This document shows positions 19,601-51,152 of a stretch of DNA of 64,000 bases, one piece after another; position 1 is the stretch's first letter, and each line of letters opens with the position of its first letter. The stretch is from positions 46,254,001 through 46,318,000 of the forward strand of contig OZ076409.1 of assembly GCA_964187785.1 (NCBI GenBank), in the 5' to 3' direction. The translations under genes were made by a program, and so were the position numbers. Source of the DNA: Amphiscolops sp. MND2022. Taxonomy: Eukaryota. Under the pieces are notes generated by a model. The model ran no database searches and was not told where the DNA came from. It saw only the letters and a program-made list of their open reading frames with translations.

Positions 19601-22600
19601 AATTACTAGGAGCGCAGTGGGGGTTCAAATACTTCAGGTATTACGTTTACGGAAAGAGGGTAAATCTGTTAGCGGACCACCAAGCACTACAACCGTTGTT
19701 AAAAAGAAATAGGGCGCACGAACAGTACAGTGCGAGATTAACACGGTGGCTAGACAGATTGAGCCATTTTGATGGAAATGTTCAATATACAGCTGGTAAA
19801 AACATTCCGTTGACGGACTACCTAAGCCGGCATCCAATCGTAAACACCGGTGAGAACGCAGCGGAGAACAACTTTAGCGGTCAAAACGAAGCGGAGTCCG
19901 AAGAAGAGTTCGTAATAAATCAAATACACGGTCTATTCGATTTCATTCAAACAAACGGAAGCAAAAAAAGATTCGCAGAACGAACCAAACCGAAACAAAA
20001 TATCGACCAATCACAGCGCGGCACATGCAAGCGTGAACAAAATAAACAAACTCATTCGCTCGAAGCCTCAATACCATTGAACGGTGTCAATCAAATCTCA
20101 TGGACAAACTTTCAAAAAAATCCACAACGACATCCAATATGGACAAATTCAACGGCATAGATATGCACTTCATTTACAAGAAAAGAGGACACTCACCAGA
20201 TACATACAGACTCTGGGCAGAAAGGAAGAGACTTCTGAAACCCGGAAAGACGAGAGTTGTCGGCAGAGGGACAGATAACGAGAGAATACAGGAGTATCGA
20301 CCTTCACAACAAGTTCGAAAAAGAATTGCGGAACTGAATATACAAATGTATAACAGATTTTTCAGCTACTGCGAGACACTGGGAACGACGCCGCTGAAGG
20401 AGTTTCAACAAAACAATCACGAATCATGGATTGTACAAAATTCGTCCGACACCGAAAGCCAAACAAGCAACGTTAGGCAAGCGAAATGCCCCACAAATGC
20501 CATCAAAAAGTTCCGCAAACACGAGACCGTCAATCTGATCCGGTTGAAACAAACCGTCAAAACAAATACCCTGGATGACGAACACAATGAGCGGACTGAA
20601 GAGACAATCAAAAGAGCAGAAAAGGATTATGCACTCGACCTACTTATGCTAGTAGAAGAAACAGCGAGAGATGTGAAAATTCTAAGCGCTTTTACTGCCA
20701 TCGAAAGAAACCAAACCGAAGAAATTTTTACCCTTACCGAACATATAGACATCACCTGACCACCCGATTCGGCTTACTCTTCTGTAACGACAAAATTGTT
20801 ATACCAGAAGCAATGCGAACAACGATCATCGCCATGGTCCATCAAGGACATCCCTCAGCGACTAAGTAGGATCAGTCAGCCGCAGCGTTCTGGTGGCCCG
20901 GCTTGTACCGGGAAATACGAGAAAAAGCTGAAAATTGCCCCAGCTGCAGGGCTTCAGGTAAGAACTTAACAACACAATTACCGTCAACAGAAAAAAAACA
21001 ATCTAGAAATTTTATCCGAACCGAACCAAGAAATCCAATTGGAATTCGCTGGTCCAAGAAAATCAAAGACTCGCGGCGATGCATATATTTTAGTCGCGGT
21101 CGACCGTTTTAGTAAATGGCCAACGGCTCAAATTTGTAAAAATACCGACTCACGGACAGTTTTAAAATTTTTAACGAAATTTTGCTCAGACAACGGAACA
21201 CCACGGAGTATACGTACCGACAACGGTAGTTGTTTTAAAAGTAACGAATATAAAGATTTTTGTAACCAAGAAAATATAAAGCGCATACGATGCACACCGA
21301 ATTTACATACGGGCACCGGCCAAGTGGAAAGAATAATACGGACAATTAAATCATTAACTAGAGCAAATATGGCGGACGAATTAACATTTGAAGAGAGTGT
21401 TAATTTAGCGATTAAAACGATCAGACAAAACCCGCAGAGTAAATTAAACATGACGCCATTCCAAATGCACTTTGGACGCAAACCACGCACGGCGATAACT
21501 AATTTAATCGGACAGCCAGAATGTCTTCTCTCTAATTGGAAAAAGACTTTGACCAATTACGTTTTAGCACAACACACTGAGCTCCAGATGTTTACAATCA
21601 ACGACTCACAAGGAGAAATGGCCGACTATATGGTCCTTAACTACTCAAAGAAAAGAGCTCGATTGGTAAGCCGGGAATTTAAACAATACCAGTTTTTTTG
21701 AAAAGGAAAACAAACCCAACGCCATGAAATGTAGATTCAAAACCAATAAAATGCTAACAGCTGTAAAAGAAACTAAACACACCGTAACTATGTCCGAAGG
21801 AAAAATAATGCACAAAAAACTAGCGTGAAAACTGATAAAACATCAGCTGCCAAAGAAATCGGAGGGGAAAAGAATACCAACAAACCGCTGCATCAGGTGC
21901 GGAAAGTTCAGTCAAGGAGACTATTGCGATACGCACAAAAAAGTGTATGGAGTCCCAAAGATACAGACCAACCGAGCAGCAGCTACACTCTCCCGACAAT
22001 GCCGCAAAAAAGATCAACCTACGGTGACATCACCGTAACCGCCACAGAGACGGACAGCCACGAAACACAAGATGAATCGCCAGCGGAGGGAAAAGAACAA
22101 CAGACGGACACAACAATCACTGCGACGGAAACACAGTCAACCGAAGAAGAAGACACGCCCGGAACGAACACGCCACTACCATCCACGCCGGTACAGTGCA
22201 GTACTAGCTACGGTACACGCCCGACACAACCGGAAGACAAATTACAGACGCCAATACGCGCAACCGTCAGCGCCGAAGTAGCCCCAAAAAAGGAGATAGC
22301 AAGCCCCGAAAATGGTAAATTAAAAATAATAGAGAAAAAGAAACCAAGAAACCATAAAGTACAATTTGAACCATCAGCGGATCTCCGCAGATCTAATAGG
22401 ATAAAAGACGCTGAGCGAACTGAAAAATTAGGACGGGTAGAGTATTTTAAATTTAGTTAGGTTGTTTAGAGATCTCCAGCCCACTCCAACGATTTCTGCG
22501 GACTCCTTTCCCGAAGATAAAGAAAGACAATGCGTAAGCTAAAGCCCCGGTCAAATGGGAACTCACCGAGAATCAACCATGGTTTTCCTGAACTACAGAG

Positions 22601-22797
22601 GGGGCAACGAGAGAAGATGCCACTATGGCGATTAAGTTAACAGTACCTGTTAACATAAACCTCATTGTACGAACATTCTTTGTTGATGCTACATACGATA
22701 CAGTCTAGCGATCAGTGTACATGATCATACATAAACTTTGTGTTTGAGATATCTTACTTTTAATTCACCTTCTTATCCAATTCTCCAGTCAATTACA
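16651..22797 (+). mobile_element. Ty3/Gypsy LTR retrotransposon (element G2), same family group as G1; several stops and frameshifts
   Basis: 417-bp direct repeats 16651-17067 and 22381-22797 (about 6 differences by eye), ending ATTACA. PBS TGGCGCAGTCAGC at 17068. Gag with Cys/His knuckles, protease NDTGSP, RT WLDD, RNase H TDAC, integrase (VDRFSKW, TDNGSCF, VERII). Confidence 0.93.
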
Positions 22798-22906
22798 ATC
22801 TATTTTCAGTTTTGAGACATCTGAGCTAACAATTCGAAAGAAAAACTTGCCCGAAAAAAAGAGGAACCATAAAAATTTTGACGTCAGTTTCAGACTAAAA
22901 TACAGC

Positions 22907-24870
22907 TGTCGCAGGCTGCCGCCTGCGATGGCACTAAGATCACGACAACAGCGGAAGGGCAAGAGACCGCGACCGGAACCTTACCAATCTACTGAGGAGA
23001 AAACATTTAAAATGCAAACTTCCATATTGTTCCGTTAATTACACTTGTTAATGTTGCTGACTCCATTTATATATATATATATACATATGTTTTGCTAGTA
23101 TTAGTCTGTTAGGGCCAATAACCAAAAGGCTCAAATGATATGTAGTTGTTTGCAAATTTGGAAATGCAGTACAACAACGCAATTGCAGTAATAAATAGAA
23201 GCAGCTAACGAGCGTAAAGGAAACGAGTTCAAGTAGACGTCACTCCAATTCCGGGGACGTCGCTTGAGCTTACTACGATTAGCCAATCACGTGCTGTAAT
23301 TCTTGCTGTACTATTGTTGTATTTGTTAATTGGCCGGTTAAGGCCGCCTGACGAAATTCCACTCTCACTGCTCACTACTTTGGTCAAACGGCCGGTTCCG
23401 GCCGTGAAGCAATAATGAAAAGGAACTAACTTATTACATCGGTACTTCATTAGTAATAATACAATTGTTCTTTCATGTAGTTTAAATGTTCATTGTTGAT
23501 AATATGAAGCTTTGTTTAGTATTTGGCCGAGTAAGGTCCATTGAACTAATATATATTGTTTCAACTGGTACTCTGGTCAAATGGCCGATTGTGGCCATTT
23601 CATGCATATTTGTGTTTTATTGTTCAGTTAACCAGATATTAACCCGGAACTAGCATGAATTCATCTCTGAAACAAATGAAGGTGCTTATGGTACTATATT
23701 ATCTGCGTGATCCAAGCATATGCAAAATAGACGAATAAGGCCATTTTCCTTCACTTCCCTATTGTGCTGTCTGTACTTACGGATTTAGGTCTATTTCGGT
23801 TTCAGCATGAAATGTATTTTCATGAATAGTGGATTCATACCACAGTCCTTATGTGCGGTTATACATTCCATTCTCAGTGTATTATATAATAAATCTTGTG
23901 TCGGCACGTGCCTCCACCTCACTTTGCGTGAGGTATGTAAACAAAGGTATTTGTTGACACTTTGATGTACATGCCTTAGTCGGCAGTTCGTTTGAAGCTA
24001 CTATTTTGACTATATGACCCATAAATGCCATTCCCTAGATGTCCCCGAAGATATGTGAATATCAGGGTTTTCATCAAGGAGCTAATGATCATATGATACT
24101 ATCAACCTAACTAGTTATGTAAGGAATGTGACTGTCATTCCCTAAAAGGTATAAATACTGTTATCCCATTGGGGAAATCATTAATTCCTTCCATTTTACT
24201 CTAGTTAAGTTTAATCTACAAACGGCACCGCTGTTATTTCCGTGTTCATTAATTCATTATTGATTCGGAACTGTTTCAATGCCAACCACTAGAAAGCAAA
24301 AGAAAGCTAGAAAGTCTAGAGGACTTGAGATGTTATCAGATATTGAAAATCTGGATATCATGTTAGGCGAAAACCATTTTGATAGAAATGAGAGAAATGA
24401 AAGTGTGAATAGTAATCAGGCCGGTAGGCCAGAAAGCTTATTTGGAGATGAACTTGGAGATGAGAATGAGAATGGGTTCCCAAACTCAAGAAATAATGGA
24501 CCAAGTCCAAATACCGAATTAGGCCATAATTCAATCAGAGAGTGTCCAAGCGTTGAGATCAATAGATTGTCAAGCGAGTTAAATTCACGTATATCTCGAG
24601 AGATGGACGAAATGATGAATAGTGTCAGTGTTCAGATTCAAAGAGCCATAAATGAGGCAATTAGTAGCCAAATTTTGCCTCAAATCCAAAATGTAGTTAT
24701 GGCCGGATCGGGACAATTGACCAAAGAGAGATGGAACGTTCCGGCCGAGAGACCGGAAGGATATTCTGAAGCACTGCAAAACTCAGAACTTAGGAACAAT
24801 TCTAAAAATAAACAGACCAACGACCGTCCCAAAGACGGAGTCACAAGCACGAACTCCCGTGCTTACGACA
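22907..24870 (+). repeat. 5' LTR of G3 (1964 bp)
   Basis: Near-identical to 37454-39419 (about 5 substitutions plus one TA-unit indel by eye); imperfect terminal inverted repeat TGTCGCAGGC / GCTTACGACA. Confidence 0.97.
24150..24182 (+). promoter_or_regulatory. Candidate LTR core promoter (TATA box and initiator)
   Basis: TATAAATA at 24150-24157 and TCATT at 24178, about 100 nt upstream of the gag ATG. Confidence 0.5.
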
Positions 24871-25997
24871 TGGTGACAGGAGAAAACGAATCTCCAATCG
24901 AAGTTCCTGAGTTTCTCACGGGACGAATCTCATCCAGAAACCATCTCGACAGGTCCTATGAGGATATTAACCTTGACACGACGATCCCAGCGCAAGAGAG
25001 AAATGCTCCGGCTGCTCAAACTGACCCTATTACTCGACTAGCAGATGTCTTGACAACGATGCAGAACAGGCCGACAGCCCAACAACTCACTATACGCCCA
25101 GTCAATTCAAACACAATGACTTTTGATGGCAAGAGTGAAAAATTCGAGCTGTTTGAGGACCTGTTCCACACGATGATCAAGATGCAACCGGAAATGACGG
25201 AACAGATGAAAATAAATCACTTCCACTCACTGCTGAGGAAGAATGCTCTCCAAACCTTCCGGAACATCAGCTCGAGCAATAGACAGACTTTAGAGGACGT
25301 ATTGGTAATATTCAGACGAAAATACGTCAAACCAGAATCACAGGCAACTGCCAAACATAAATGGCACCGTCTAGTTTTCGATCCTAACACGATGAAACTG
25401 CCAGATTTCCTTGAAGAATTAAATCAAGGGGCAGGAAAAGCATTCGGGGATCACGCACAGAAAATGATTGACAGTTTGCTCTACGCAAAACTGCCACCAA
25501 AACTGAAGCGGTCTGTAAACATGGCCAGACTCGAAAACGGCTCGTATGACGAAATAGTTGCTCATTTAGAGAGAGAGTTAGAACTAAATGCTCTTGAGGA
25601 ATCAGACGACCTACCAATGGCCACAATGACCTCCTCGACTACAAAACCTAAAACTCCTCTGTCCACAGGGCAACTGTCCGATATCACTTGCAATTACTGC
25701 AAGGAGAAGGGCCATATGGTCAAAGACTGTGAAAAATTGAAGAAGAAAAAGGAAAAAGATGCCCAACAAGGCAAACAAACTCAGAAAAAGACGTATCCGG
25801 AGTGTGGCACTTGTGGTAAAAAGAACCACCCGGAAGAAAGATGTTGGCAAGGTGCTGGTGCGCATCTCAAACCCAAACGCACCAGATCAGGTGACGCTAA
25901 TGACGGTAAACCCAATTCAAAGGCGCAGAAACCACAAAACAAACCAACATCTTCCAACTCACAGACCTCATCTTCCAATGATGAGTCAAAAAACTAA
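24279..25997 (+). CDS. gag: Gag of G3 (572 aa), starting inside the 5' LTR
   Basis: Capsid-like region (TFDGKSEKFELFE...) and two CCHC knuckles (CNYCKEKGHMVKDC, CGTCGKKNHPEERC); ends in the heptamer A AAA AAC followed by TAA. Confidence 0.93.
   Translation: MPTTRKQKKARKSRGLEMLSDIENLDIMLGENHFDRNERNESVNSNQAGRPESLFGDELGDENENGFPNSRNNGPSPNTELGHNSIRECPSVEINRLSSELNSRISREMDEMMNSVSVQIQRAINEAISSQILPQIQNVVMAGSGQLTKERWNVPAERPEGYSEALQNSELRNNSKNKQTNDRPKDGVTSTNSRAYDMVTGENESPIEVPEFLTGRISSRNHLDRSYEDINLDTTIPAQERNAPAAQTDPITRLADVLTTMQNRPTAQQLTIRPVNSNTMTFDGKSEKFELFEDLFHTMIKMQPEMTEQMKINHFHSLLRKNALQTFRNISSSNRQTLEDVLVIFRRKYVKPESQATAKHKWHRLVFDPNTMKLPDFLEELNQGAGKAFGDHAQKMIDSLLYAKLPPKLKRSVNMARLENGSYDEIVAHLERELELNALEESDDLPMATMTSSTTKPKTPLSTGQLSDITCNYCKEKGHMVKDCEKLKKKKEKDAQQGKQTQKKTYPECGTCGKKNHPEERCWQGAGAHLKPKRTRSGDANDGKPNSKAQKPQNKPTSSNSQTSSSNDESKN
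24871..24882 (+). promoter_or_regulatory. Primer binding site of G3 (tRNA-Leu-like)
   Basis: TGGTGACAGGAG abuts the LTR end; 11/12 match to the complement of a typical metazoan tRNA-Leu 3' end (TGGTGTCAGGAG), recalled from knowledge. Confidence 0.6.
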
Positions 25998-28900
25998 CTT
26001 CGCCACGACTCCAATACAACCAACTAATATCTGTCCGACAATACATCAGATCGGACCCTCCAACGCAAACTTTCCACCAATACAACCAACAATTGATGGG
26101 CTATCCCTCTGTTGTCTGGCAGCAGCAGATGGAAAAAGCTACCATTATTACTTACAATAATACCCATTTGTTCCAAAAACCAATTCCTGTATGGGATCCT
26201 GATTACACATCTGCTTTCAATAGCCGATTCAGGCCCATTCCCTTGGTAGACGATTACAACCCTACCTACATAGACCCCGATTATGGACGAGATCCCTATT
26301 GGGACACGGAACTCTACAACCAAGATCTGCTACAATTCCAATACGTCATTGATGATATCGAACTCTAAAATAAATCAGCCCATGAAAATCCTCCAATCAC
26401 CCACAACAAGAAAACTAGAGCATTGATTGAAACCTGGCAAATGAATGATGGCACAAGCCATCCGGTGTTCCCAAATCCTCTGGGGACCGAGAATACTGAA
26501 AACAGCGGTGAAATCACACCACAATCATTATTAGATGAAAAACAATTCCAAAATATACTCATCACCAGAGATGGTGAACCAGACTGTATACCCCTGTCAA
26601 CCAACATCAACCTCAAATGCAAGAAACGCATGCTTTATTTCCCAATGGACTTTGGGGAATTGACCATAGACGGACTTATCGACACTGGTGCATTATCCAG
26701 TGCAATCCCAGAGATGGACCTCCGGAAAATCAGACTCTTATCGCCACAATCAGTAATCCGGGAGGGTCCGCCTCCAAACTTCCAGATAATGGTCGCAAAT
26801 GGGCAACTAGAGACTCCCAAGAGTACAATAGAGCTCAAATTCGAAGTTGGTGACATAGAGTTCCATGAAATTTTTATAGTAATGGAACACCTAACAGGAC
26901 CGATTATAGGACTGATGTTTCTACAGAGAAACCATACAGTACTGGACATGAGACAAGGAATACTGAACTTTCCGTTCTTTTCAATGCAGCTTAAAACAGC
27001 TGATCATAAATACTCGAACGTGCTAGAGCCAATTCTAAACCCTACTGAAATAACCATGCCGCCAAACGACAGAGTCCTGATTAGGACCAATTCCTTATTA
27101 TACCCTGAAAACACCGTCACAGGAATTTTGCAACCGAGCGACCTTCTCCATGAAGAAGGCGACATCACATTCTGTCCAGCCTTGGTCACCTTGAATGACG
27201 GCAATATATTGATACCAGTGAATAACTTCACAGACCACCCTTACAAGCTCAAAAAGGGACTCCATATTGCTAGTTTTTCAGTTATGACGCCAGAACAAAT
27301 GAAATATGTCAAACCGGTAGACCCGGCATCAACCTGGCATTTGTTGCAAAACGACCAAGAGCAAGCAGCCCATTACGTCAGTAGCCTGATCAAGACGAAC
27401 AGAAATTCACAAAACCCCGAAAACTACTGGTTCCCAACTCCGGAAAATCCAGGGAATCCAGAAGAACACACTCCAATCCAGAAAAGAATCCTCCGCGAGC
27501 TACAAGCCCTACAGGACCTAGAATCCCTTGATCCCACGAAAGACGAGGAATCTAGGGAAAAATTCTTAAGAAATTTTGATTGGAAAGACTCCACCCTAAC
27601 CCTGGAAGAGAAAACCAAAATTGAAGAATTGCTAGTGGAATTTCACGACATTTTTGCGAGACACAGATTTGATATAGGCATGAATGAGGAATTCAAGGTG
27701 AAATTGACACCTAAGGACGATTCCCCAGCCTATAGCCAAAGCCTCCCTGCGCCAATAAACTTGAAAGAGGACATTTTAGTCGAATTAGCCATGCTCCACA
27801 AATATGGCATAATAACTACTTTACCGTTCTCGAAATACGCCAGCCCAATATTCGCCCAAAAGAAACCAAATGGGAAGCTACGACTTTTGGTTGACTTGAG
27901 GAAAATCAACAACCTTATCTCGGATGATTATATCAACAATAATCACCCTGTTAGCACCTTGGTTGATGCTGCCCAACACTTGGCAGGCAAAAAACTGTTC
28001 TGTAAATTAGACTGTTCGCAGGCATACCACTGCCTACCAATGGCCGACCAACGCTCAATTGAAATGTTGGCTTTCAATTTTGCCAGTCGTACATTCGCGT
28101 ACAGACGCTTGGCACAAGGCCTTAGTCGGTCACTATCCGCATTCTCGAGTTTCATGAGGGAATACCTCGACAAAGTCATTAAAGCGGATCAGTGCGCCCA
28201 GTATGTGGACGATATCGGCATCGCAGCCAATGATGTTGAACACCTCATAATGAACCTGAGAGCAACATTCAAATGCATTCAGGAAGCAGGCCTTAAGCTG
28301 ACAATGCACAAATGTCACTTTGGTGCAAAAGAAATTGATTTTCTCGGACGGACTATTACCCCGCAAGGCGTCAAACCTCAGAAACAGAACGTGCAAAACT
28401 TCCTGGAAAAGACTAAATTCCCAAAGTCGAAAAAGGCTTTGCAGCGCTACTTGGGATTCTTGAACTACTACAGAAATTATGTCCCAAGACTATCTGAACG
28501 CCTTGCTCCATTCTACAAGATGCTCAAAAGTGACGAAAAGGTCCTAGTATCGAAAGAATTAGTCCAACAATTCGAAGAAATCAACAAAGCACTTGACAAA
28601 TGTTGCGATTTGGCATTACAGCAACCCATTCCGAACAAACAAATCGCACTAATGACTGATGCAAGTTTTGGTGCAGCTGGATATGCGGTCTTAATAGAAG
28701 ACGATCCAAACCAGAAATTCACATCTCTCCGAAAATCCTACGCACCGGTGGCCTACGGATCAAAAACCTTCACCCCAGCCCAGATCAAAATGTCAATATA
28801 TGCCAAGGAATTTCTGGCAATTTACTTTGCATTCAAAGAATTTGGACATATATTCTGGGGTGCGCCCAAACCGGTCATTATCCTTACCGACAACAAAGCC

Positions 28901-31225
28901 GTCACGAGATTTTTCCAAACGAAAATAATACCCCCAGCCCTATGGAATGCATGCGATTATGTGATTCAGTTCAATTTTGTCATAGCGCATATTCCGGGAG
29001 CACAGAACACAGCAGCTGACTATTTGTCCCGATTGGAGGCAGATCCGAAGGATAAATTAGTCATGAAAATCCGTGAAGACGTGCAAACTTTACCCATTGA
29101 GATAAATGTTCAATCTGCGGGGGTATCACAGGAAGAACAAATATTCTATACGAATGATGATGACGAGACAGAGGAACAGTATTGGGCAAGAAAAGAAGCA
29201 ATCAGGAAAAATCCAATGACTGATGAGCCCACTGTTACCATAGAAACTCTGTCAACCAATTTGGTCAAACAACAACCAGATATCCAAGTCCGATTAAAGA
29301 AAACAAACCAGATAATCATCGAGCAGTCCAAAGATACAGTATTGCAACAATTGAAGGCAAAGCTCCTTCATGAAGACTATTCAGAAAACATACTGCAACA
29401 GGATGCCCGATATAGACACTACGCAAATAATCTGGAACGAATTGTACTCAAGGACGAAATCCTGACGAGGCAATATTTTGATGAAACAGGGAATGTTAAA
29501 TACCATCAAATTTTGCTACCACAACACCTACTTCGGGAATTGCTCCACTCCCTTCACGGGACAGCGCATAAACATCCCGGGATTTCAAAAATGTTGCAGG
29601 AAATCAGACAAAGGTATTACTACCCTAGCATGGCTAAACACGTCAAAAAGTGGGTAGAAGGGTGTGAACAATGTGCCAGAGACAAGAGAGTCCCTAACGC
29701 AACGATCACACCTGAGCTGCTCAACTTGCCCGAATGGGACCTTGGACCTGAAGACGCCATGCAGATTGACCTGTTACCGAATCTTCCCCCAAGTGGAGGG
29801 TATGAAAATGTCCTAACGGCAATCGACGTTTTCTCCAGATATTTATTCGCTTATCCCCTTACAGACGCATCAGCGATCAATGTGGCAAAAGCGCTCATTG
29901 ACATAATGACCAAGCACGCATATCTGCCAACGACTCTTATTACTGACAAGGGTACTGCATTCACTTCTACGATTATTGCGGAGGTTACGCAAATTTTGGG
30001 CATTACACTCAAATGTGCAACGACAAAGCACCCGCAAACAATTGGGAAATTAGAGCGGACCCATGTCTCATTAAAGACAAACCTCAAAATGGCATGTGGG
30101 GAATACCGCCGACAATGGCATAAATATCTGCCATTAGCAGTACTTAATCATAATACGAGTTATCATGCCAGTATCGGTTGTGAGCCAACGAGAGTATTCC
30201 ATGGCAGAATTCCCTACAACATCCTGGATCACAAGCTTGGAAATAATCCAAACGAAAAGATCAGCCCTACAACCGAATTTGCTGACAAATTCCAAAACCG
30301 GAAAAAAATCCTAATTGACAAAACGAAGCAGAACATTATGCAGTCGTATATCAAGTACAAAGAATATTACGACCGCAAAGCAAAAGCTGCTCCATTGAAA
30401 GAGAATGATTACTGTTTCGTCCTACAGCCGGAAGCGGATCATCAAGGATCAAAAATTCCATTCCGCGATTACCGTTGGGTTGGACCATTTGTAGTCCAAA
30501 AGGTTTTGCCAAATGAAAACTACATAATACGAAGAATCAATACGAACAAAACTCAAATTTTGCATCGCATTCGACTTAAAAAGTTTATTCCCAATCAACC
30601 GCTTGAGGACAATTTCCGAGAACAACGTCTGCAGCCAGACGAAGAAATTGTCATTCCGCAAGACGACTTATACGTCATAACGTGGGAAACAGACTTCGGC
30701 GAACAGCTAGTTACACGAGGCAACGAACCTATTCCGACTAGCTTGCCGAACGGCGAACGGCCGAGTACGGCAGAAAACACAAATGACGCAAACGAGAATG
30801 ACGTGGATTACATAATCACGCGAGAAGGATTAAACAACGACAACGCGGTACACAGTCGGAATGGCCGCTTAAGTCACGACGCAACGACAAGTAATGACGT
30901 CACCGAAGAAGCATCGAATGACGAACCTGATTGGCCGAACGAGGCCGGTTTACCGAAAGCTCACGAAACACATTCACCGAATACAGCAAATGACCTCAAA
31001 AAAGACAAAATTATTCCAGAAAGCCCAAAAGACAAGGAAATTTTCCCATATGAAAATTTGCGAACCGAAACTGATGCACAAAATTCTCCAAGAACGGGGG
31101 ATGATATTATCGTGCCCGAAATATCCGAAAACGATGCTAGAAATGAAAGCCTGAGCCCTAGAGGAGGGAAATATAATCTCAGGCCTAACCCTAACCCAAA
31201 CTACTCAGAAGACTTCAGATACTAA
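25988..31225 (+). CDS. pol: Pol of G3 (PR, dUTPase-like insert, RT, RNase H, integrase) in the -1 frame; one in-frame TAA at 26366-26368
   Basis: 1600-codon ORF 26423-31225 with LIDTGA (PR), YVDD (RT), MTDAS (RH), H..H/CEQC and IDLL/TDKG/LERTH (IN). The same frame is open back to the gag slippery site except for one TAA. Confidence 0.95.
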
Positions 31226-31459
31226 GAATTGAATTTCTTCCCGAAAATGGGAATTCTCTTCTTTTCATTCTTTTTATCTTTTTTCAGTCCCATGCAGCAG
31301 TATTTTTTGAATAAATAATGGGACATTTGAATGATCCCTTACAAGAAAATAAATACGGGATCAGGAAATCAAGGCAACAACGAACAAAACGAAAATAAAT
31401 ACGAAACAGAAAATGAACAAAAGATACAGTCTACAAGTACATAAATACATATGTACATA

Positions 31460-34400
31460 TTAGTTCTTAGAGGATCCCTGGACAAGTTTCTTGGAGGCGG
31501 ATGAGACAGTAGAACTACTGCTACCCATTCTTTTCCGTTGGGTCCGGGAAGGAAGCTTTACGGCAGAGTCATCCGGCACGGAAGAGGCAATTCCTTTCTC
31601 CAGACGAACAGACCGTGGGGGGGAAACAGCAGTGACGACCTTATAGGAGGCAAGAAGGCTCTTGTAGATTTTGGACCTCCCGAACTCATCCACAAAGGTC
31701 CATGGATCATAGTCAGGGGAGAAAGCGGAACGCTCGAAGGAAGAACTGAGAGCTGAAAACTTTTCTAAATTAGCATCAGAGCAACAATGTGGAATGGAAT
31801 CAGGCACGCAAGAAAGGTAACTCTGACAGGGCTCTATCAGGTCAGCAAAACGGCCTCGGTGTCCAGAAGTGTTAACACTCCCGAAAGATACTGGAGGATA
31901 TTGGGGACTTTGTCCTGTCAAACACAAGCAGCACAGCTTGAAGAGATGGAAAATGTGCTCATGAGTTTGAAAAAACTCGAGCTGCATCAGGAAGTCTATC
32001 AGGTCGGTGGAATTTTCCTTGAAATCGAAATCTGGAGGATAATTGACTCGCAGGTGATCTAACAAAGCCAAATACTCATCTCGACAGACGTTCTCATTCT
32101 CACTGGAAACCCAAGAGCGAAGCTGGAAGGTCGAGTACAACACCTCAAAGTGACGGAGTCCGACCTCACTTGGTCTCTTGAAGAGGACAAAAGGGTCAAA
32201 GGCGGCTAACCCCTTGATCACCTCGGAACTCAGGCCGGCTTGGTTGAGGACCTGCCTGATCAGGTACTGAATGAACTGTAGTCCCTCTTTGACGAAACTG
32301 CTGGTTGTTTCTGCAGCTGTCTTGTCAATGGCGGCCTTCTCGGACTTCTTGTTCAGATGAACAACATCGGCACACTGTTTGCTGGCAGTAGCTATCCGAT
32401 TTGTCAATCGGTGCCGGATAAGGAACTCTTCCTCGCTGATGAATTTTCCTTCGCTCACGTTGAAATTGAGGAGAAGGAACCACGAATTCTCGAGAGGGAT
32501 GGTTTCCGGCAAGTAGCATCTGGCACATAGCTTGGAGACGAAACGGCAGACTTCTCCACAGAGGAAAAATGACGCATCTCGTCGGCCTAGCAGATTGACA
32601 ACGAAACTGGAAACATCTGGAAAATACAACGGACAAGATCATGAAAGGAACAAAACGTTCACATGAACCCATACCAATATGCCTATTGTGCTAGTAGCCC
32701 AAGGAATCAAGGATCAAGGACCGTTCTGATAATGTCTTAAAGTACCGATATGGACATGTAGCGGTATACTCACAATCACTGATTATGCGTTGGAAGAGTT
32801 CCAACTTGACGACGAAGAAAGAGTCGCAGATAAGAGACCACTCGAAGCTCTGCACTTGATTGTGGAACCCCTGCATTCCTTGGTGTGGAGTATGTGACGT
32901 CAGGTACTGCCGGACTGCTTTCCAATGTTTCAGGAGTTCCCGGCAGAGGTTGGGTAAACTCGGTAAGTCCAGTTTGCAGGTATCAATGGCCTAAATGAAC
33001 CCGAATTGTCTTTTGTCCGAACCTACCCCCCTAACCTTTTACGCCTCATGTTTGAACTTAATATACTAACTCGTGCTAGTTCAGGGGATTGCAGGACCCA
33101 GTCTTCATCGGTAGCTGCTCCAAGTGAAACCATGAGGCACTTCAGAACAGAGAAGAAGTCTATTCTGCCAAACACACTGAAAGTGGGTTTGTGCATCATC
33201 TTCTGAGCTGCAGGTGCTCGAAGCGAAAGCAACTCTGGACAGCCCGAGGGAAGAAAGCATTGTAGTCGATAGTCCGAATCAGCTCCACTGGACATCCGGA
33301 ACAAGCGACTATATCGGCCTTGGTGGACACTACTGAGAGAAGTCGAGAGAGGGACCCCAACTCCCCAGTAAGATCAGAGGAAGGAAGCCCACTTCGGCAC
33401 ACGTAGATTCGGCAGAGGGTGTCGCCCTTCCAGAATTTGACAGACATGAGTCTGTTCACTCCCTGATCCTCAAACTCGATGGCAAAGTGCTGTGTGGTAG
33501 CAATCTGATTTGCTAAATCGTTCATTGCACAATTGAAAATATGCTGGAAGATGGCCTGAAAAGGAAAAGGAGAATTACGAAATGTGTGGAGGACTTTGGT
33601 TTCCCACGAGCAGTGCGCAACCCAATAGAGAACTTACCGAAATTCTTTCTTCGCCCCAATCGAAGTCGCAGTAGCTGGTCTGGTAATTGGTCAAAGAGCC
33701 TATTTGGGACCACAATTTGCGGAGCATTCCAATATCTCCAAGTTGCTGTATGAAGTTCCCAATGAGTTGAATCTGCGTCTTGGTTCTTGCTTCAGGGGTG
33801 ACGAATGTGGTGGTTGTTCCTTTTATGAAATCATCATAGAAAGGGAAGCGTTCTCCGATGTCCACCAGCTCAACGTGCATAAAGTGGCGCATCTCCTTAG
33901 CCAACTCAATCTCTGAGAGGATCTTCCCATTGCGGCCTCTCACTCGATGTTGCACCTTTCCGGACACGGGGTGGACACTTTTGAGGTGCTCGTAGCGCCA
34001 TCTTTGATCTCGTCGGAGGTGCTTCTCCGTCCTGTGGTGTCGCAGGATTTCCAAAGTGCCCTTCGTCTTCACGGAGATATTCTTTTTGCATAAATGGCAC
34101 CATACCATATACGGATTGTGAAGCGGATCTGCTGGTCCGGAAATGAACGAGCGCGTCCATCCGATTTTGGAGAAAAACTCCTCTTTCATAGGGACACCTC
34201 GAGTCTGCTTTCGTTGCTTCCGTCTTGGCGCTTTACCCGAACTCGAAACTAAAGGCGGGGCAGGAGAAGTTTGAGTCCGTAACTCGGAAAGAGTGGCATC
34301 AAGGCTTGACTGTTCTGCTGATTCGAAGCCTGCTTGGGAGGGATCATTTTGAGTAGTCCCGCAAGAAGTTGAAGCAGGTCTGAAAGGCTCCTTGAAGGCT

Positions 34401-35590
34401 TGTGAGATGAGAGCCATTTCTTCGGAACTATCTGTGTCATTGGAGGAGTCCAGCCCTCTGTCCTCTTGTCCTGAACTTGTTCCGACAGACGTATCAGTTC
34501 CTGACTCAGGAAAATTTTCAGAGCGTAGGCTGCCATCAGAATCACTATGAAGTCCAGGTCCGGGAGTTTGGGCTCTTGGCCTGATTCGGAAATGGTCAGT
34601 TCGAGAACTGGAAGTGACCGGCGCTCCGCGAACTGCCCCAATCACCATCTGTTCCATGGCAGTGAAGGACATCTTCAGGGTTTCATCTGTAAGAACCCTC
34701 AAAAGATGATACACTTGTGGCTCAGTAAAAGCCACTGTTCTATGGCCGAGAGGGAAATTGATGGTGGTAGCATCCTGATCAAAGTACTGTTTTAAAATGG
34801 CCCGGCTGCGACCGGAGAGCTCCCTGACGCCAGAATCTTGCCCTGCAGACGTTGATGTTGACGGACGCATGTTATCCGGACGATGAATAGGAGTGTCAAC
34901 TGACGACTCCCCTGCAGTTTCTGCCACATTTCCTACTGGCTGGAAACTGTATAGAGCTGGTCCACTTGCCTGGCTGGATGTATCACCGGCTTCCTCAGTC
35001 CCAGTCACGTCATCCAAATATACTACATCTGTGACTCCAGTCGGCAATTTAGGGGCATCACATACAGATGAACCTTCATCAGTCTCATGTTGAAGGAATG
35101 ATGCTGCTGACATGTTGGCAGAAGTTCCGCAAGTTGTCAACAATTCTGGCAATTCCGTCTGAGTGGAGGGAGCAATCGTGAGACCGGCTTCTAGCTGTGA
35201 TAAATCCAGCCCTGCAGATTCACTGGGCAAGTCCTTGGTTGGAGTGCTAGTTTGGAAGAGCAATGTAGAAGTTTGGGGTTCATTCCCAACAGTAGGCGAA
35301 CCTTCAGGGGCACTCTCTTCAACCTCCTGTTCCCCGATTTCAGAACTCTTGGCAATCTGTCTCTCTTCCTGTTCCTGGGCCCGTGCAAGAAGCAGAACTT
35401 TCTCATCAGCGTATGCCGTGACATCGAAATCACTATCAACACTGAAAGGAGAGGGAGTGACTGTATCCTGGGCTCCTTCTGTTACCGCTGCTGTTGACAT
35501 GACAATGGTGGTGGATGAAGTTGGAGAATACGGAGCAATTGGATCGGGACTAGACCTTGGCATAGTTATTGGAATAGGACGTCGGGGCAT
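31460..35590 (-). pseudogene. Antisense spliced accessory gene inside G3: ~1300-aa BED-zinc-finger, hAT-transposase-like protein; exons 35590-33638, 33555-33071, 32990-32675, 32616-31460; one frameshift (~33198) and one TAG (32693-32691)
   Basis: GT-AG introns of 82, 80 and 58 bp (GTAAGT..TTTCAG, GTTAGT..ATTTAG, GTATGG..TTCCAG) join the ORFs in matching phase. WCHLCKKNI...ILRHHRTEKH is a BED-like finger. Downstream segments resemble hAT transposase. Confidence 0.75.
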
Positions 35591-36753
35591 CTCGGTGAAA
35601 TTGTCTGAAGAAGTGGTGTTTCGAATCTGTGATTCGTCAATATTCTGGTTTTCTAAACAGAATGAGATGAAATTTGGCGGTGAGCTTCCTTGAAAAAAAT
35701 CCAATTTACCGCGTTAGAAAACTTCCGGAAGTGCTATGAAAATTCGAATGAAATGTGTTATCACGCATTTATTGATGGAAACAGGAAGCATTTTGTGAAC
35801 GAATTTAGCCCTGATCAAGTTAAATTTGAGTTCAAAAAAGAAACAAACCAACCTTCAGTTGAAGACATTCTGAGCTGGGACGAAACGGGAACTGCTCCAA
35901 TCGGATTGCCGCCACGAAGGAAATTGGCCGGACTCGGCTTGAAGGGGAGAAACAGAGATACTCTGAAGAGAAGACTGACTGGAGGGATTGGAGACAGAAA
36001 GGATAGTTTGACAATGAAGACTGACCGGATGAATATGGACGAGGAAATGCAATTAAAATAAAAGGAATTGGATTGGAATTCAAAATAAAGAATTGAAGAG
36101 TTGGAGTTCGTGGCTGAAGATTATTACCAGACTAATATTATGGATTATCTACATATTTATTCTGTACATGGAGTCTGCCAGCGAAGTGTACAATGGATTT
36201 TGTTATTTACAGCTTATTTAGTTAAAGGGCCGGTTATGGCCGTTTGCCCTGTTTTGTTTCGCCGTTTTGTCCAGTTACCCTAGTTACCCTTAGCTAGAAT
36301 TTTCGCCATCTTGAATTATTTAGATTTATTATTTTCGCCATTTTTATTATTTAATTTCACAATTTATCGAAGCTTGACGCTGATTGGTTGAAGCCATTTT
36401 GAAAGAATTCCGCGTCGCATGCTGTTAATTGCTATCAGGCAGACTGTTAATTACCCACTTGAAACGGGTGAAGATGATATTTACAACTCAAGCGTCGTTA
36501 ACACCTCTCAGAGTGATGGTGCTGATAGAGGGTAAACAGTGAGTTATCAAAGGATGCCGAATAATTATAAAATTCCATTCAGGAATGTTTACGTCGGATC
36601 AGGACGATTTACCAATAGCTCAACCGCCAAAAACGAATTGCCGGGAAAAGGCCCGACTTGGCCAAATTCTTGAACTGGTGAATTCATTCCACTTTGAAAC
36701 TTTAAGCAAACCAGTCAACTCCTCTGCTTAGCAAGATTGCGAAAAAACTAATA

Positions 36754-37542
36754 ATGCAAAGATATAACTTAACCAAGAAGCCCTTCGACTTTGAAGAAGA
36801 GGATTCAGAAAGTTCAACAAATTCGATAATCTACATATCCAGCGACAGTGAGGATGAGGCTTCAAGCGATTGGGACTCAGACTGGTCTACTGATACGGAG
36901 GCTATAATAGACAGGATTGAACGGGAAGTTAAAGCGACACCAATTCCTATTGCCGGACGGGGAATGACAATGGAAAGCTCAGATGACGAAAGGGCGGCAG
37001 GACCCAGCTACATTCAGTCTGTTCCGCCTTCTACCCCGAAATTGGGATTTGAGTACTTCAACAGGGAAATGTGTCTAGCGCCGTCCAAAAGGCAGAAGAA
37101 GACGAGGGTTGAGCTCTGCACTACTGTTTTGCCTGTTTTGGAATCTCCATTATCTCCTCCCGACCATGAGAGAGGACCAAGTATTGATACTCCTCCTGTA
37201 CAGTCGACTTCAGGGACTTTCTACGCCTCGTATCATGTGCAAAATATCAAGCCTTACCAGAACGTCAGTGAAAGTCTACACACGGGCTGTATGGTATGTG
37301 GTAAATCGAGAGAGCAGATAAAAGAGGAAAAGATCAACTGGTATATGGAGAGATCGACGCCCAAGAGTGAACCAGCCTATATCACCGCATTACGACGAGA
37401 AGCATACTCTAATGGTTTAAATGCAGGTAGTCTACTTTTCCTAACACCCGCAGTGTCGCAGGCTGCCGCCTGCGATGGCACTAAGATCACGACAACAGCG
37501 GAAGGGCAAGAGACCGCGACCGGAACCTTACCAATCTACTGA
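36754..37542 (+). CDS. Accessory ORF of G3, 262 aa, acidic N-terminus, unknown function; last ~29 codons lie in the 3' LTR
   Basis: ATG-initiated uninterrupted ORF with IIYISSDSEDE (SIM-like), PSKRQKKTR (NLS-like) and CMVC; AATAAA downstream at ~37739. Confidence 0.7.
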   Translation: MQRYNLTKKPFDFEEEDSESSTNSIIYISSDSEDEASSDWDSDWSTDTEAIIDRIEREVKATPIPIAGRGMTMESSDDERAAGPSYIQSVPPSTPKLGFEYFNREMCLAPSKRQKKTRVELCTTVLPVLESPLSPPDHERGPSIDTPPVQSTSGTFYASYHVQNIKPYQNVSESLHTGCMVCGKSREQIKEEKINWYMERSTPKSEPAYITALRREAYSNGLNAGSLLFLTPAVSQAAACDGTKITTTAEGQETATGTLPIY

Positions 37543-39419
37543 GGAGAAAACATTTAAAATGCAAACTTCCATATTGTTCCGTTAATTACACTTGTTAATG
37601 TTGCTGACTCCATTTATATATATATATATATACATATGTTTTGCTAGTATTAGTCTGTTAGGGCCAATAACCAAAAGGCTCAAATGATATGTAGTTGTTT
37701 GCAAATTTGGAAATGCAGTACAACAACGCAATTGCAGTAATAAATAGAAGCAGCTAACGAGCGTAAAGGAAACGAGTTCAAGTAGACGTCACTCCAATTC
37801 CGGGGACGTCGCTTGAGCTTACTACGATTAGCCAATCACGTGCTGTAATTCTTGCTGTACTATTGTTGTATTTGTTAATTGGCCGGTTAAGGCCGCCTGA
37901 CGAAATTCCACTCTCACTGCTCACTACTTTGGTCAAACGGCCGGTTCCGGCCGTGAAGCAATAATGAAAAGGAACTAACTTATTACATCGGTACTTCATT
38001 AGTAATAATACAATTGTTCTTTCATGTAGTTTAAATGTTCATTGTTGATAATATGAAGCTTTGTTTAGTATTTGGCCGAGTAAGGTCCATTGAACTAATA
38101 TATATTGTTTCAACTGGTACTCTGGTCAAATGGCCGATTGTGGCCATTTCATGCATATTTGTGTTTTATTGTTCAGTTAACCAGATATTAACCCGGAACT
38201 AGCATGAATTCATCTCTGAAACAAATGAAGGTGCTTATGGTACTATATTATCTGCGTGATCCAAGCATATGCAAAATAGACGAATAAGGCCATTTTCCTT
38301 CACTTCCCTATTGTGCTGTCTGTACTTACGGATTTAGGCCTATTTCGGTTTCAGCATGAAATGTATTTTCATGAATAGTGGATTCATACCACAGTCCTTA
38401 TGTGCGGTTATACATTCCATTCTCAGTGTGTTATATAATAAATCTTGTGTCGGCACGTGCCTCCACCTCACTTTGCGTGAGGTATGTAAACAAAGGTATT
38501 TGTTGACACTTTGATGTACATGCCTTAGTCGGCAGTTCGTTTGAAGCTACTATTTTGACTATATGACCCATAAATGCCATTCCCTAGATGTCCCCGAAGA
38601 TATGTGAATATCAGGGTTTTCATCATGGAGCTAATGATCATATGATACTATCAACCTAACTAGTTATGTAAGGAATGTGACTGTCATTCCCTAAAAGGTA
38701 TAAATACTGTTATCCCATTGGGGAAATCATTAATTCCTTCCATTTTACTCTAGTTAAGTTTAATCTACAAACGGCACCGCTGTTATTTCCGTGTTGATTA
38801 ATTCATTATTGATTCGGAACTGTTTCAATGCCAACCACTAGAAAGCAAAAGAAAGCTAGAAAGTCTAGAGGACTTGAGATGTTATCAGATATTGAAAATC
38901 TGGATATCATGTTAGGCGAAAACCATTTTGATAGAAATGAGAGAAATGAAAGTGTGAATAGTAATCAGGCCGGTAGGCCAGAAAGCTTATTTGGAGATGA
39001 ACTTGGAGATGAGAATGAGAATGGGTTCCCAAACTCAAGAAATAATGGACCAAGTCCAAATACCGAATTAGGCCATAATTCAATCAGAGAGTGTCCAAGC
39101 GTTGAGATCAATAGATTGTCAAGCGAGTTAAATTCACGTATATCTCGAGAGATGGACGAAATGATGAATAGTGTCAGTGTTCAGATTCAAAGAGCCATAA
39201 ATGAGGCAATTAGTAGCCAAATTTTGCCTCAAATCCAAAATGTAGTTATGGCCGGATCGGGACAATTGACCAAAGAGAGATGGAACGTTCCGGCCGAGAG
39301 ACCGGAAGGATATTCCGAAGCACTGCAAAACTCAGAACTTAGGAACAATTCTAAAAATAAACAGACCAACGACCGTCCCAAAGACGGAGTCACAAGCACG
39401 AACTCCCGTGCTTACGACA
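37454..39419 (+). repeat. 3' LTR of G3 (1966 bp); contains a copy of the gag N-terminal ORF (38828-39448) that terminates in flanking DNA
   Basis: Direct repeat of 22907-24870, followed by the TSD ACAGC. Confidence 0.97.
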
Positions 39420-40100
39420 ACAGCCTACGAAACTCGTTTATAATTTAAGAAACACAGGACTCCGTATTTGGTCTCGGTTCTGAGATCTTTACAAAACCAC
39501 TTTAAACAAAAACATGGTTTCAATATAACTATCGGTTCCGCGAAAGTTGCCTGATAACGTTGAAATTCTTCCACATGTCTCGACAATCGAGGAAAAAAAA
39601 TCTTTCAGGAAAATGATTGAAACTTTTAGTATTTGTAAACGCCTATTTCGCGGTGAAAGAATTTCGCAAAATAACGAAATTGACAGTAATAAACGCAAAC
39701 CATGCTGCCGCGTCGGTTAGTGTCTTTTTGGGTCATTTTCAAGTGTTCCTGGTAGTGAAATTTAAAATTAGCGAAAACCCTTATAAGGCTCAAGCAAAAC
39801 GTTTCTCAGTATTTTTATATCGTTAGATTTGCGTAGGTTTCAGCGGCAACATGGATGGTCTGCGATGAAAAAGTTTCCAGAAAGTTTCCAGGCTAAGCTC
39901 GAAGCCTCAAAACTCAGCTTAAAAACCAACACTTTGCCAATAACAGAAAACTCATTTTCAACCTCATATTAATTAGACTAACATATGAAAATAGACTCGT
40001 TTGCCTGGTTTTCTGAACAATTCTTTAAATTTGTAATATTGGATTCAGACCTCATATCAATGACACATTCAATTATACACTGTATAAATATAATTCCAAA

Positions 40101-41770: not shown

Positions 41771-44261
41771 GTACAAAACCTTGGTCAAATTGTATTCACC
41801 ATTCAATGATCTACTGGAGGAATTTAATCTCCTACCTAGATCCTACTTGGTAGTGAAAAATTACTTCATTTTGTTGTGGAAGGTGGAAAAATCTATGTTG
41901 AAGGTGATATTAGTTTTTCAACAGCAGGTGTCAATACGCGCTCTGCCTCTTTTACATCATTTCAGGTTCCAAATCGAGTGAAGCTTAAATCCAAAAATGT
42001 TTTTATGTCAGAGCCCCACGACTAGACAACCACCCCATCTCTGCTGGAATTATTGACTTCTCATGGCCCCTTCAGAAATGCAAGAAAGCATAGCACAGTA
42101 TCTTGAAAGAAAAAGGAAAAAGTTTCGATGAAAACGTGTCCTGTACTTTTTATTTGAAATTTTTGTCCTACTTGTAGGTGTTAAGTAATACATTTCTAAA
42201 AACCAATTTTATTTCATACTTACAATTTTGATTGTATGCCTTTCCTTATTTTGGAATTGAGTCTTCCTAATCTAATCTAAAGAACATCGTGCACGTATTT
42301 CGTTAGAAAGGAAATGACTTCAGTGACCCGGAAGACACATTAAGTTTCCTGTCAATCAAAACAAACTGTTCAAAGAAACTTCTCTAGTTTTCTAACGAAT
42401 AGGGGGATACTGTTTTTCCTTTGCCCAATTGTTTTCAGCAATGTCTCATTGATTGTTTCGTTTCATCTTCTGGCCTGTCTGCAAACTTCCTCGCAACTTC
42501 CTCAAATTTTAAACATCTTATCACTAAACGAGGTAAGCTGTTTCGAAAGCATAGACTACATAGGATTTTTGGCTCATGGTCGTTATAGCGAACATTTTCC
42601 GAAAAATATCATTTTTTAGACTTTATAGTTTTGAACACGAAAATGGAGTTACAAATCGATGCAGTGTTTATAGTTATATGTTTCTCAACTGAAATTTTGA
42701 GTGTGATTATTCACTGGTTTTTCAGGCAATTTCATTGCACATTTTTAAGGATCTCAAAAAATTAGTGGATGATCATTTTGGTGTTGCGCAAACGTATAGG
42801 TCAACGTTGAGTGTGAAAAATCTGCAGAATTTTGGCAAAATATTTTTTCTAAGCAGCCTGTTTTGATTTTCAACGTTCTGTTTCTCCAGGGCAATTTTTG
42901 TTGAAATGTGGAAAAAAAGGAAATAACGAGAAATTAGTTACCTACTAATCGAAACAGAAAGAAGGCAGCTATGTAAATAAGAACCATTTCATACCTTCAT
43001 GATTTTCACATTGACGCTTTTTTGAGCCAATTTTTCCAAAAATTCTTAATAAAACTTCATCAGGAAGTAGACACTTTGAGTTCGACATTTTGCTTTTTCC
43101 ATTCGGAAAAGGATTTCAACAAGCGGGGTACAGCCTAGTCAACGTCCCGCTAAAAAGAGTGAAACAAAAATAGTTGTTCCAAAAATTTTCAAACTCAATG
43201 CCGAAAAAAAACCCAGAAGGGAGAACCCATAGGACTAAAAAGGCTTTTCTTGCCAGAAATAAAAAAACCAACACTTTTTCCGTTTCGTCACCAGAAACAT
43301 CAAAGAATCAAAGCAAGAATCTTTTTGTGAAATGAAATTTTCCCAAAAATTTGCATAATGCCAACAAAACCCAAAATTCTCCGAGCTTGAAAAGTCTTTC
43401 ATTATCCAAAAATATCAAAAAACCGAAAAATGAAAACTTGGATTTTTTCGAATAGTCGCACAATTCCGAAAACAACAATCAAATTCCATTTAATCCGAAT
43501 AAGTATGTCAAAATACGAATTCAGCATTTTGGCAGTCACTTCGACCGGATTGAAAAAAAAACAAAAAACATGGGAGGAAGAGAGCTTTGCGCAAGGCTAA
43601 ATAGATAAGCGAAAGGGTAGAAATCATAGGAGAATAAGTATCTTACAGCGAATCAATTTTCCTCAGAAAGCTATTCAATTTTCGGAATATGAACGGCCCA
43701 TTTCTCCGTAATGGAACTTTTTCAAGACACAACTGACATGAAAATTCGCAGGGTCTTTTGTTCTACCGATTCATAGAACTTTCACGCTCACTGGCTTATG
43801 TTAAAGACCTTAATTTGACTAAAACAAAACTTACCCTCTCAAAATTATCATTTTTCAAATTTTCGTCGAAGAAAAAACTATCGAAAAACTTTCCGACAAC
43901 TAAAAGTTACACCATGGTGAATTCCAACCTTGTGTATATTTTTTTCAAAAAGTAGAACGCTTCGATAATTGCGCTGAAATAAAACGCTTCGAATAAAACA
44001 ATTGAGAGGGATATCACACTCTCAGACGGGAAGATTTTAAGTGTTAGAAAAGATGTCTATCAAGGCGGGATATATTCAATCTTTTCTTCTCAAAATTATG
44101 TAATCCAGTGAATCATACATTTAAAAGTCAATGTGTTTCAGTTAGTTCATATAGTAGTTTGATGAGTCATTTATGACAGGCTCCACCCCCCCCACGCTGC
44201 AAGAAGGAGAGAGGGGCAAGGCGACTATGTGGTGAAGAAAAATGATTGAGCGAGCGAACCG

Positions 44262-50200: not shown

Positions 50201-50293
50201 CAGTTGAGATGCTAGATAATTGGATGAGTTCGTGAATTTGATGTCGTGCAGCTTGAATTGATTCTGCAGGGTCTGCTGTTTCGGGTTGATCAT
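44262..50293 (-). pseudogene. gag-pol: Bel/Pao gag-pol polyprotein of B2, broken by a stop at 48281-48283 and a frameshift near 47700
   Basis: KLPPIQIPKFDGD gag motif, triple Cys/His knuckles, ALIDFGS protease, RT (ADIEGMFMQI; YMDN instead of YMDD), RH (VFTDAS), IN (SDNGKNF, PWERMI). Confidence 0.92.
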
Positions 50294-51054: not shown

Positions 51055-51152
51055 TGAAAAACACTTCGTAGAAGGGGCCTTGAAAAAAAAGGCTTCGTAG
51101 AAGGGGCCTCGAAAAAAAGGCTTCGGAGAAGGGGTCTTGTAGAAAAAAAGGT
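51055..51152. repeat. ~28-29-bp tandem repeat x3 in the B2 leader
   Basis: AAAAAAGGCTTCG(T/G)AGAAGGGG(C/T)CT(T/C)G units. Confidence 0.8.

Follow-up and report, generated by a model that had tools for sequence, protein, structure and literature searches.

We analysed a 64,000-nt stretch of DNA from Amphiscolops sp. MND2022 (assembly GCA_964187785.1, contig OZ076409.1, positions 46,254,001 to 46,318,000 of the forward strand; hereafter the window), in which a retroelement of 16,513 bp (22907..39419) carries two accessory genes downstream of pol. Its direct long terminal repeats (LTRs) have TG...CA ends and are flanked by a 5-bp target site duplication (TSD), and gag is followed by protease (PR), reverse transcriptase (RT), RNase H (RH) and integrase (IN) in that order, so the element is a member of Ty3/Gypsy. 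The two LTRs are 99.64% identical by blastn, differing by five substitutions and a 2-nt indel within a TA run (p-distance 0.25%), and ACAGC stands on both sides. These values confirm the preliminary description of this DNA, which had proposed one recent insertion bounded by ~99.7% identical LTRs and a 5-bp TSD. A TATA-like site near 24151 in the LTR is retained in three LTR classes. The LTR-to-LTR period is 14,547 bp, and the 6,228 bp between pol and the 3′ LTR hold a gene on the antisense strand and a sense open reading frame (ORF) on either side of a divergent spacer (Table 1). The label "giant" was overstated: the bar given in the available text of a review is 20 kb of internal region (PMC6431247), and the layout with an antisense ORF after pol is shared by Retand (PMC11963269, available text).

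The accessory region is common to the family. We searched the 1.07-Gb assembly (1,929 contigs), and the match counts for the accessory region, the last antisense exon and the sense ORF are lower bounds. At the DNA level, 24 scored candidates for the accessory region yielded 23 full-length matches (92-100%) and one interrupted copy. The last antisense exon alone matched at 84-100% at all 108 loci scored out of 7,758 first-look candidates and is thus present at no fewer than 108 loci. For the sense ORF, 150 candidates were scored and 151 matches obtained, with identities of 64-100% among those listed. Of the 24 best matches to pol, 22 had the last exon directly downstream when the lists were compared by eye, and the other two lay outside the scored list. 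The possibility that other copies might lack the region did not hold, given the 23 full-length matches and the at least 108 last-exon loci.

At the protein level, a search with the zinc-finger region returned 237 clusters (120 listed, 65-98% identity), and a last-exon profile found 474 representatives at 50% clustering (150 listed); among 71 aligned relatives, the last exon is 26-64% identical to the window copy. By these comparisons the antisense gene belongs to a radiation reaching about 27% identity. Three diverged members were tested against the host genome: two were native (100% and 97%), and the third, P0274, had a best match of 41% or less and falls, in a 32-row tree, within a starred clade of five rows. 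A second organism therefore probably carries the antisense gene, as judged from this one member. Close match pairs, picked by eye, were spaced 13.5-15.1 kb apart six, three and three times in three lists (one spacing shared), where about 0.02 per list would be expected by chance; one pair of last-exon matches is separated by 14,548 bp, compared with the 14,547-bp period of the window element. Runs of three or four matches ~14 kb apart (C5:3368637-3397971, C7:62498579-62528842 and C9:14580513-14623146) suggest head-to-tail arrays. As the spacings resemble the window period, the diverged native families are probably same-size units arranged in such arrays. The window copy itself is a mosaic, 95-100% like one subfamily in pol and the antisense gene and 93-95% like another in the spacer. 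Its sense ORF is closest to the same class as its spacer, and spacer, sense ORF and LTR start (36126-37830) have been swapped between subfamilies as modules.

The antisense gene is predicted to consist of five exons with 1,296 codons in unbroken copies and intron phases that close, in agreement with the spliced gene of ~1300 codons proposed earlier. Splicing was predicted from DNA: the four introns are GT-AG in 25 of 25 aligned copies, namely the 23 full-length matches and one copy each of the 93% and 84% classes, and the database protein P0173 continues from exon 2 into exon 3 without a change of frame. Nineteen of these 25 copies have an unbroken gene, a count made with exon ends shifted by one codon, which leaves the frames unaffected. 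In the window copy exon 3 spans 485 nt versus 486 nt in all 24 others, and the break lies near 33204. We calculated the ratio of nonsynonymous to synonymous substitution rates (dN/dS) pairwise among four copies (six pairs, several of them saturated and without a value). It was 0.02-0.13 in the last exon, compared with 0.02-0.10 in the integrase core, 0.07-0.11 in the zinc-finger region (dS saturated in three of six pairs), 0.03-0.20 in the 5′ part of exon 3 and 0.12-0.39 in the disordered region; small segments were noisier, with values of up to 0.74 in the linker. These estimates show purifying selection on the antisense gene. Intron 1 is a candidate cis-element: it holds no coding sequence on the plus strand, and support for a structure is weak (1 compensatory pair of 54). 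A plus-strand ORF of 125 aa (35684-36061) was rejected as a gene, being interrupted by stops in 3 of 6 copies shown.

The sense ORF, placed downstream of pol with 262 aa in the preliminary description, was found as described. It is at least 255 aa long in 21 of 25 copies and, at a dN/dS of 0.03-0.14, is likewise shown by this estimate to be under purifying selection; the dN/dS comparison suggested earlier thus points the same way for both accessory genes. The predicted protein has an acidic N-terminus with the stretch IIYISSDSEDE, a basic stretch and H...CxxC. Six copies of two classes that are ~61% identical share IYISS with acidic residues, a Pro-rich block and H...CMVCG. IIYISSDSEDE presumably resembles the SUMO-interacting motifs (SIMs) of PML and Daxx, and SUMO has a role in transposon silencing. 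SIM-like motifs occur in both accessory products. Motifs of nuclear type support the nuclear location proposed earlier for the accessory module, whose regulatory role is a prediction; a basic stretch in exon 2 of the antisense gene resembles a nuclear localization signal (NLS). Neither Pfam on the window ORFs nor HMMER against PDB found a family for the sense protein. The view that neither accessory gene is env also stands: Pfam detected no env among the window ORFs, nothing corresponding to an errantivirus-type sense ORF3 with signal peptide and transmembrane segment was found, and none of seven segments tested was of transmembrane grade (highest 19-residue Kyte-Doolittle mean 1.42). The spacer between the two genes is shorter than the ~1.1 kb first given, about 885 nt from ATG to ATG, as the 16-nt first antisense exon lies within the claimed interval. 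It is a candidate bidirectional promoter.

One LTR plus the internal region contains six exact copies of the palindrome GGCC-N6-GGCC, where 0.08 would be expected, and the rest of the window contains none. Spacers of 2 to 10 nt other than 6 never gave more than one site. With one mismatch allowed, there were 29 matches versus 2.9 expected, a number reached in 0 of 100 shuffles. These counts are post hoc, because the motif was noticed in the element; an independent test is provided by its position, as sites recur at matching places across three LTR classes whose remaining sequence is about 50-60% alike. Outside the LTRs, the spacer and the variable tail of integrase also have conserved sites. 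The half-sites lie one helical turn apart, which suits a dimer. The BED domains of the Hermes transposase bind a quasi-palindrome of subterminal repeats 2:1 (PMC10368747, available text). We infer that the GGCC-N6-GGCC sites are candidate binding sites of the antisense protein.

Several comparisons relate the antisense protein to hAT transposases. In a protein atlas, the zinc-finger region was nearest to GTF2IRD2, FAM200, zf-C2H2_12 and zf-BED clusters (scores 0.87-0.90) and the last exon to Dimer_Tnp_hAT clusters (0.92), in which 53-60% of members carry the family. The CxxC...H...H zinc finger is present in 112 of 120 homologues. An AlphaFold model of the last exon from 73 sequences reached a predicted local distance difference test score (pLDDT) of 88; a single-sequence fold prediction was of low confidence (pLDDT 36). 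When the model was compared with 48,161 chains using VIA-align, residues 367-608 of Hermes aligned over 163 residues (Z 5.1, root-mean-square deviation 6.2, rank 14). This alignment was the longest among the 50 rows shown, the next covering 91 residues and most 41-76, mostly two-helix matches. In hhalign, the zinc-finger profile scored 24.9 against three host Ac-type hATs and beat 40 of 40 column shuffles, at a probability of 2.7%; beyond this weak match, these hATs have no sequence similarity to the antisense protein. hAT transposase ORFs in the host genome (L043-L045) are 610-685 aa long and have DDE-type motifs that can be recognised. By eye, the strand pattern of exon 3 is that of an RNase H-like core; the first catalytic position holds Glu in 5 of 5 covering sequences, the second is non-acidic and the CxxH His is not conserved. 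Residues 209-258 of the last-exon model, the stretch expected to hold the catalytic Glu, contain no column with at least 60% D/E. Each of these signals is weak, and what argues for a hAT origin is that four methods point, at two ends of the protein, to the same superfamily in hAT order. We thus regard it as likely that the antisense protein derives from a hAT transposase and has lost catalysis, being a derivative rather than a member of the family.

A number of observations weigh against this origin or against a role of the protein at the palindromic sites. The atlas scores of 0.90-0.92 were reached by 4-10% of shuffled proteins, and recognition of the last exon was below threshold. The Hermes match, at its rank, Z score and deviation, falls within the range common for helical models with this tool, and the profiles of exon 3 and the last exon were equalled by 23 and 8 of 40 shuffles, respectively, against the three host hATs. 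The catalytic positions were placed by eye, guided by the usual order of hAT motifs and by the host hATs. Pfam hAT families matched 0 of 73 last-exon alignment members and none of 31 selected proteins, and Foldseek against PDB and viral structures gave nothing at E <= 0.001. The motif was first noticed in the element and may instead be the target of a host factor, and for the diverged families linkage to pol is judged indirectly, from match spacing. Further searches were also negative: neither accessory gene was matched by Pfam among the window ORFs, re-examination of 226 Foldseek chains with VIA produced no clear match, HMMER with three alignments against PDB found nothing meaningful, JGI metagenome scans with two queries found no relative, and Rfam gave no match. 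The failure to find full-length relatives (665-2000 aa) of the last exon is weak evidence. No terminal inverted repeats (TIRs) bracket the antisense gene among the 25 longest of 58 inverted pairs, and the combination of TIRs and an 8-bp TSD that marks a hAT transposon was not found around it.

The reading that we favor, at a probability of about 0.45, is that a hAT transposase has been domesticated by a Gypsy lineage as a regulator of its own LTRs. A hAT DNA transposon would have inserted downstream of pol and ahead of the 3′ LTR, inverted relative to the element. With the gene on the opposite strand, splicing would leave its four introns in the genomic RNA, as expected from established retroelement biology, and they would pass intact through each cycle of reverse transcription. 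The captured sequence would since have lost its transposon ends and catalytic residues, retained the zinc finger, oligomerisation scaffold and overall fold, and gained an acidic disordered N-terminal region. In the nucleus, the oligomeric protein would bind the GGCC-N6-GGCC palindrome, both in the LTR and at the divergent promoter inside the element, and act as a sequence-specific regulator, most likely an activator or anti-silencer. This promoter would drive the antisense gene and the sense ORF alike; the small product of the latter is a likely cofactor, which may engage the SUMO-dependent silencing machinery through its SIM-like motif. Binding to the motif, the direction of regulation and the role of the sense protein are deduced from sequence. 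Transposases are described as activating cognate copies and losing DDE when co-opted (bioRxiv 10.64898/2026.08.24.746577, available text).

The same origin and sites could serve a regulator of opposite sign, a self-imposed brake for copy-number control in which the SIM-like protein recruits repressors. The antisense HBZ of HTLV-1 and domesticated hAT repressors are parallels for a brake, and the SIM-like motifs of both products and the motif evidence fit it too. Antisense retroviral accessory genes encode nuclear regulators (PMC11963269, available text). We consider a brake improbable: the carrier lineages are abundant and recently active, as the LTR divergence and many identical copies indicate, and cheaters should cause the loss of a purely inhibitory protein that works in trans, yet most copies of the gene are intact. 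Just as improbable, in our judgement, is that the protein works on the DNA side, binding cDNA or LTRs for nuclear import, LTR pairing, target choice or plus-strand priming, and thereby compensating for a missing polypurine tract (PPT) and favoring head-to-tail arrays. No PPT adjoins the 3′ LTR in 8 of 8 copies, the nearest purine run lying at 37320-37333; the tandem periods of 13.5-15.1 kb recur; one motif site is inside pol; and hAT scaffolds bridge DNA ends (PMC10368747, available text). However, the sites are not at the tips but in the spacer and 400-700 bp into the LTR, positions typical of promoter elements, the element already has a complete integrase, and a long acidic disordered region fits a transcriptional effector.

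If the hAT signals were due to chance, the antisense gene would encode a chromatin protein captured from the host, or else a new fold, and the motif would belong to a host factor. The negative Pfam, HMMER-PDB, Foldseek and hhalign results favor this, and accessory proteins of plant elements have been derived from host genes (PMC13547354, available text). We nevertheless find it rather unlikely, since the agreement of four methods on one superfamily at two separate protein ends, in the right order, would have to be coincidental, and retained antisense introns fit the insertion of a DNA element. A one-off nested insertion or neutral cargo has next to no probability left. The window copy is indeed broken in pol and in the antisense gene, but the accessory region is shared family-wide, purifying selection is strong with saturated synonymous sites, the gene ends lack TIRs among the inverted pairs inspected, and the last exon forms hundreds of representatives (474) even at 50% clustering; sharing and dN/dS together refute it.

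Table 1. Features of the Ty3/Gypsy element in window coordinates
Feature	Position	Strand	Description
TSD ACAGC	22902..22906; 39420-39424		5 bp, left and right, identical in both flanks
5′ LTR	22907..24870	+	1,964 bp; carries end of sense ORF, four GGCC-N6-GGCC-type sites and first 197 gag codons
Palindromic site cluster	23332..23596		23332, 23390 and 23583 exact, 23525 with one mismatch; repeated at 37881-38145
gag	24279..25997	+	572 aa; DUF1759 and CCHC knuckle; begins 197 codons inside LTR
Candidate primer binding site (PBS)	24871..24882	+	TGG start, directly after 5′ LTR
pol frame	25985..31225	+	PR-RT-RNase H-IN with GPY/F-type tail; PR-RT-RH-IN domains in 26369-31225
GGCC-N6-GGCC site	30933..30946		Inside variable integrase tail; in all 5 copies listed
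Antisense last exon	31460..32616	-	Helical domain, model aligns with C-terminal half of Hermes transposase; basic tail
Antisense exon 4	32774..32990	-	217 nt
Antisense exon 3	33071..33555	-	By eye RNase H-like core without DDE aspartates; frameshifted in this copy near 33204
Antisense exon 2	33638..35652	-	Long acidic S/T-rich region, 75-aa island, basic NLS-like stretch, zinc finger
Zinc finger and following helical domain, exon 2	33638-34225	-	CxxC...H...H
Conserved 75-aa island, exon 2	34595-34819	-	75 aa
Antisense intron 1	35653..35852	-	88% identical between subfamilies; exons of the same subfamilies 68-78%
Antisense exon 1	35853..35868	-	Predicted 16-nt first coding exon
Divergent spacer	35869..36753		Conserved non-coding blocks, CCAAT-type site, GGCC-N6-GGCC sites
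Spacer GGCC-N6-GGCC sites	36228, 36650		In divergent spacer
Sense accessory ORF	36754..37542	+	262 aa; ends inside 3′ LTR
3′ LTR	37454..39419	+	1,966 bp; preceded by pyrimidine tract ending in CAG, no PPT

The heptamer A-AAA-AAC at 25988-25994 precedes the gag stop and pol lies in the -1 frame, which suggests a -1 frameshift between the two. The window pol is broken by an in-frame stop (26366-26368), a position across which 12 of 16 related Pol proteins align; its integrase is complete by domain content. The best 120 Pol relatives listed are all unnamed ENA proteins. Two Pol clusters at 98% identity comprise 850 and 1,547 member ORFs, figures that are not copy numbers because fragments are included. 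The related proteins P0021 and P0034 are annotated with a dUTPase domain (PF00692, precomputed), for which the window Pol has no match. The candidate PBS may resemble a Leu PBS. In 8 of 8 copies, the pyrimidine tract and CAG before the 3′ LTR (37409-37473 with the LTR edge) resemble a splice acceptor exactly at that edge. A small hairpin follows the CAG, in a region that is also coding. Hairpin signals where the LTR begins and downstream of the gag stop are weak (z -0.9 to -2.2).

Other retroelements and repeats also lie in the window. At 16651-22797 there is a smaller Gypsy element, now decayed, whose 417-bp repeats are 98.6% identical; it ends 110 bp before the large element, to whose RT its own is only 25% identical. 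An old LTR element at 6756-11995 retains short 90% direct repeats 5.15 kb apart, an A-rich stretch and an RNase H remnant. Two BEL/Pao elements that are 66-72% alike lie on the minus strand (43978-51447 and 53478-56933), and a 1.6-kb direct repeat, 99.5% identical (57658-59282 and 62376-64000), runs off the window end.

We compared this architecture with known systems, citing for each paper what its available text contains. Animal Gypsy elements such as planarian Burro, LTR elements of bdelloid rotifers and complex retroviruses are likewise enlarged by captured ORFs downstream of pol, and foamy-like endogenous retroviruses reach 17 kb through accessory ORFs. Their cargo is different, comprising env, GDSL esterase, DEDDy exonuclease, apoptosis and SUMO/ubiquitin domains, and no transposase-derived gene is described there (PMC6431247, PMC5408684). 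Our literature search, which included acoel repeats but not Repbase Reports, GyDB, Dfam, subscription journals or supplements, turned up no LTR element that carries a gene derived from a hAT.

Among known systems, the plant Gypsy group of Retand, Grande and RIRE2 comes closest; there, a pol-to-LTR region of 2.9-6.6 kb carries antisense ORFs in all copies; the product is nuclear, Grande gene23 has its own internal promoter, and the function is called unknown (PMC11963269, PMC7264820). The Amphiscolops element differs from Retand in its five exons, hAT-like architecture, second divergent gene, palindromic motif in place of tandem arrays and a host context that is not of plant type; the BEL/Pao, Gypsy and hAT content and the atlas neighbours point to an animal host. 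TRP28 (PF04195), the Retand-group domain said to occur only in flowering plants, had no match among the window ORFs, the 73 alignment members or the 31 selected proteins. A transposable element origin of the plant antisense ORFs is unsupported by similarity (PMC7264820), and for antisense accessory genes of LTR retrotransposons both origin and function are stated to be unknown (PMC11963269, PMC7264820). The present family offers a possible origin, a captured hAT transposase, as well as a motif that may be its target and natural variants in the hundreds; the escape of an animal retrotransposon from silencing could thereby become a direct question of binding and knock-down.

The predicted antisense protein shares with hAT transposases such as Hermes, and with GTF2IRD2, FAM200 and ZBED, an N-terminal C2H2-type finger and perhaps also a collinear C-terminal helical fold. 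It differs from hATs in having no DDE, no TIRs or 8-bp TSD and about 480 extra N-terminal residues. Whereas GTF2IRD2, FAM200 and ZBED were domesticated by the host, the domesticator here would be a retrotransposon. Two regulators encoded by transposons, VANC of VANDAL/Mutator and TnpA of Spm/CACTA, act in a sequence-specific way on non-coding motifs of their own elements, and such anti-silencing has been documented in plants for DNA transposons (PMC5735166, bioRxiv 10.64898/2026.08.24.746577). TnpA is itself transposase-derived; the words "retrotransposon" and "LTR" do not occur in the available text of that preprint (bioRxiv 10.64898/2026.08.24.746577). VANC and TnpA serve plant DNA transposons, whereas the transposase here would have crossed from class II to class I. 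It is a doubtful proposal that an animal Gypsy superfamily in more than one organism thrives by means of a domesticated transposase anti-silencer that reads GGCC-N6-GGCC, with a SUMO-pathway antagonist, a shared bidirectional promoter and no canonical PPT. If true, animals would have an equivalent of the VANC/TnpA systems of plants. Transposase domestication by another class of transposon would extend the route from transposase to transcription factor beyond host genes.

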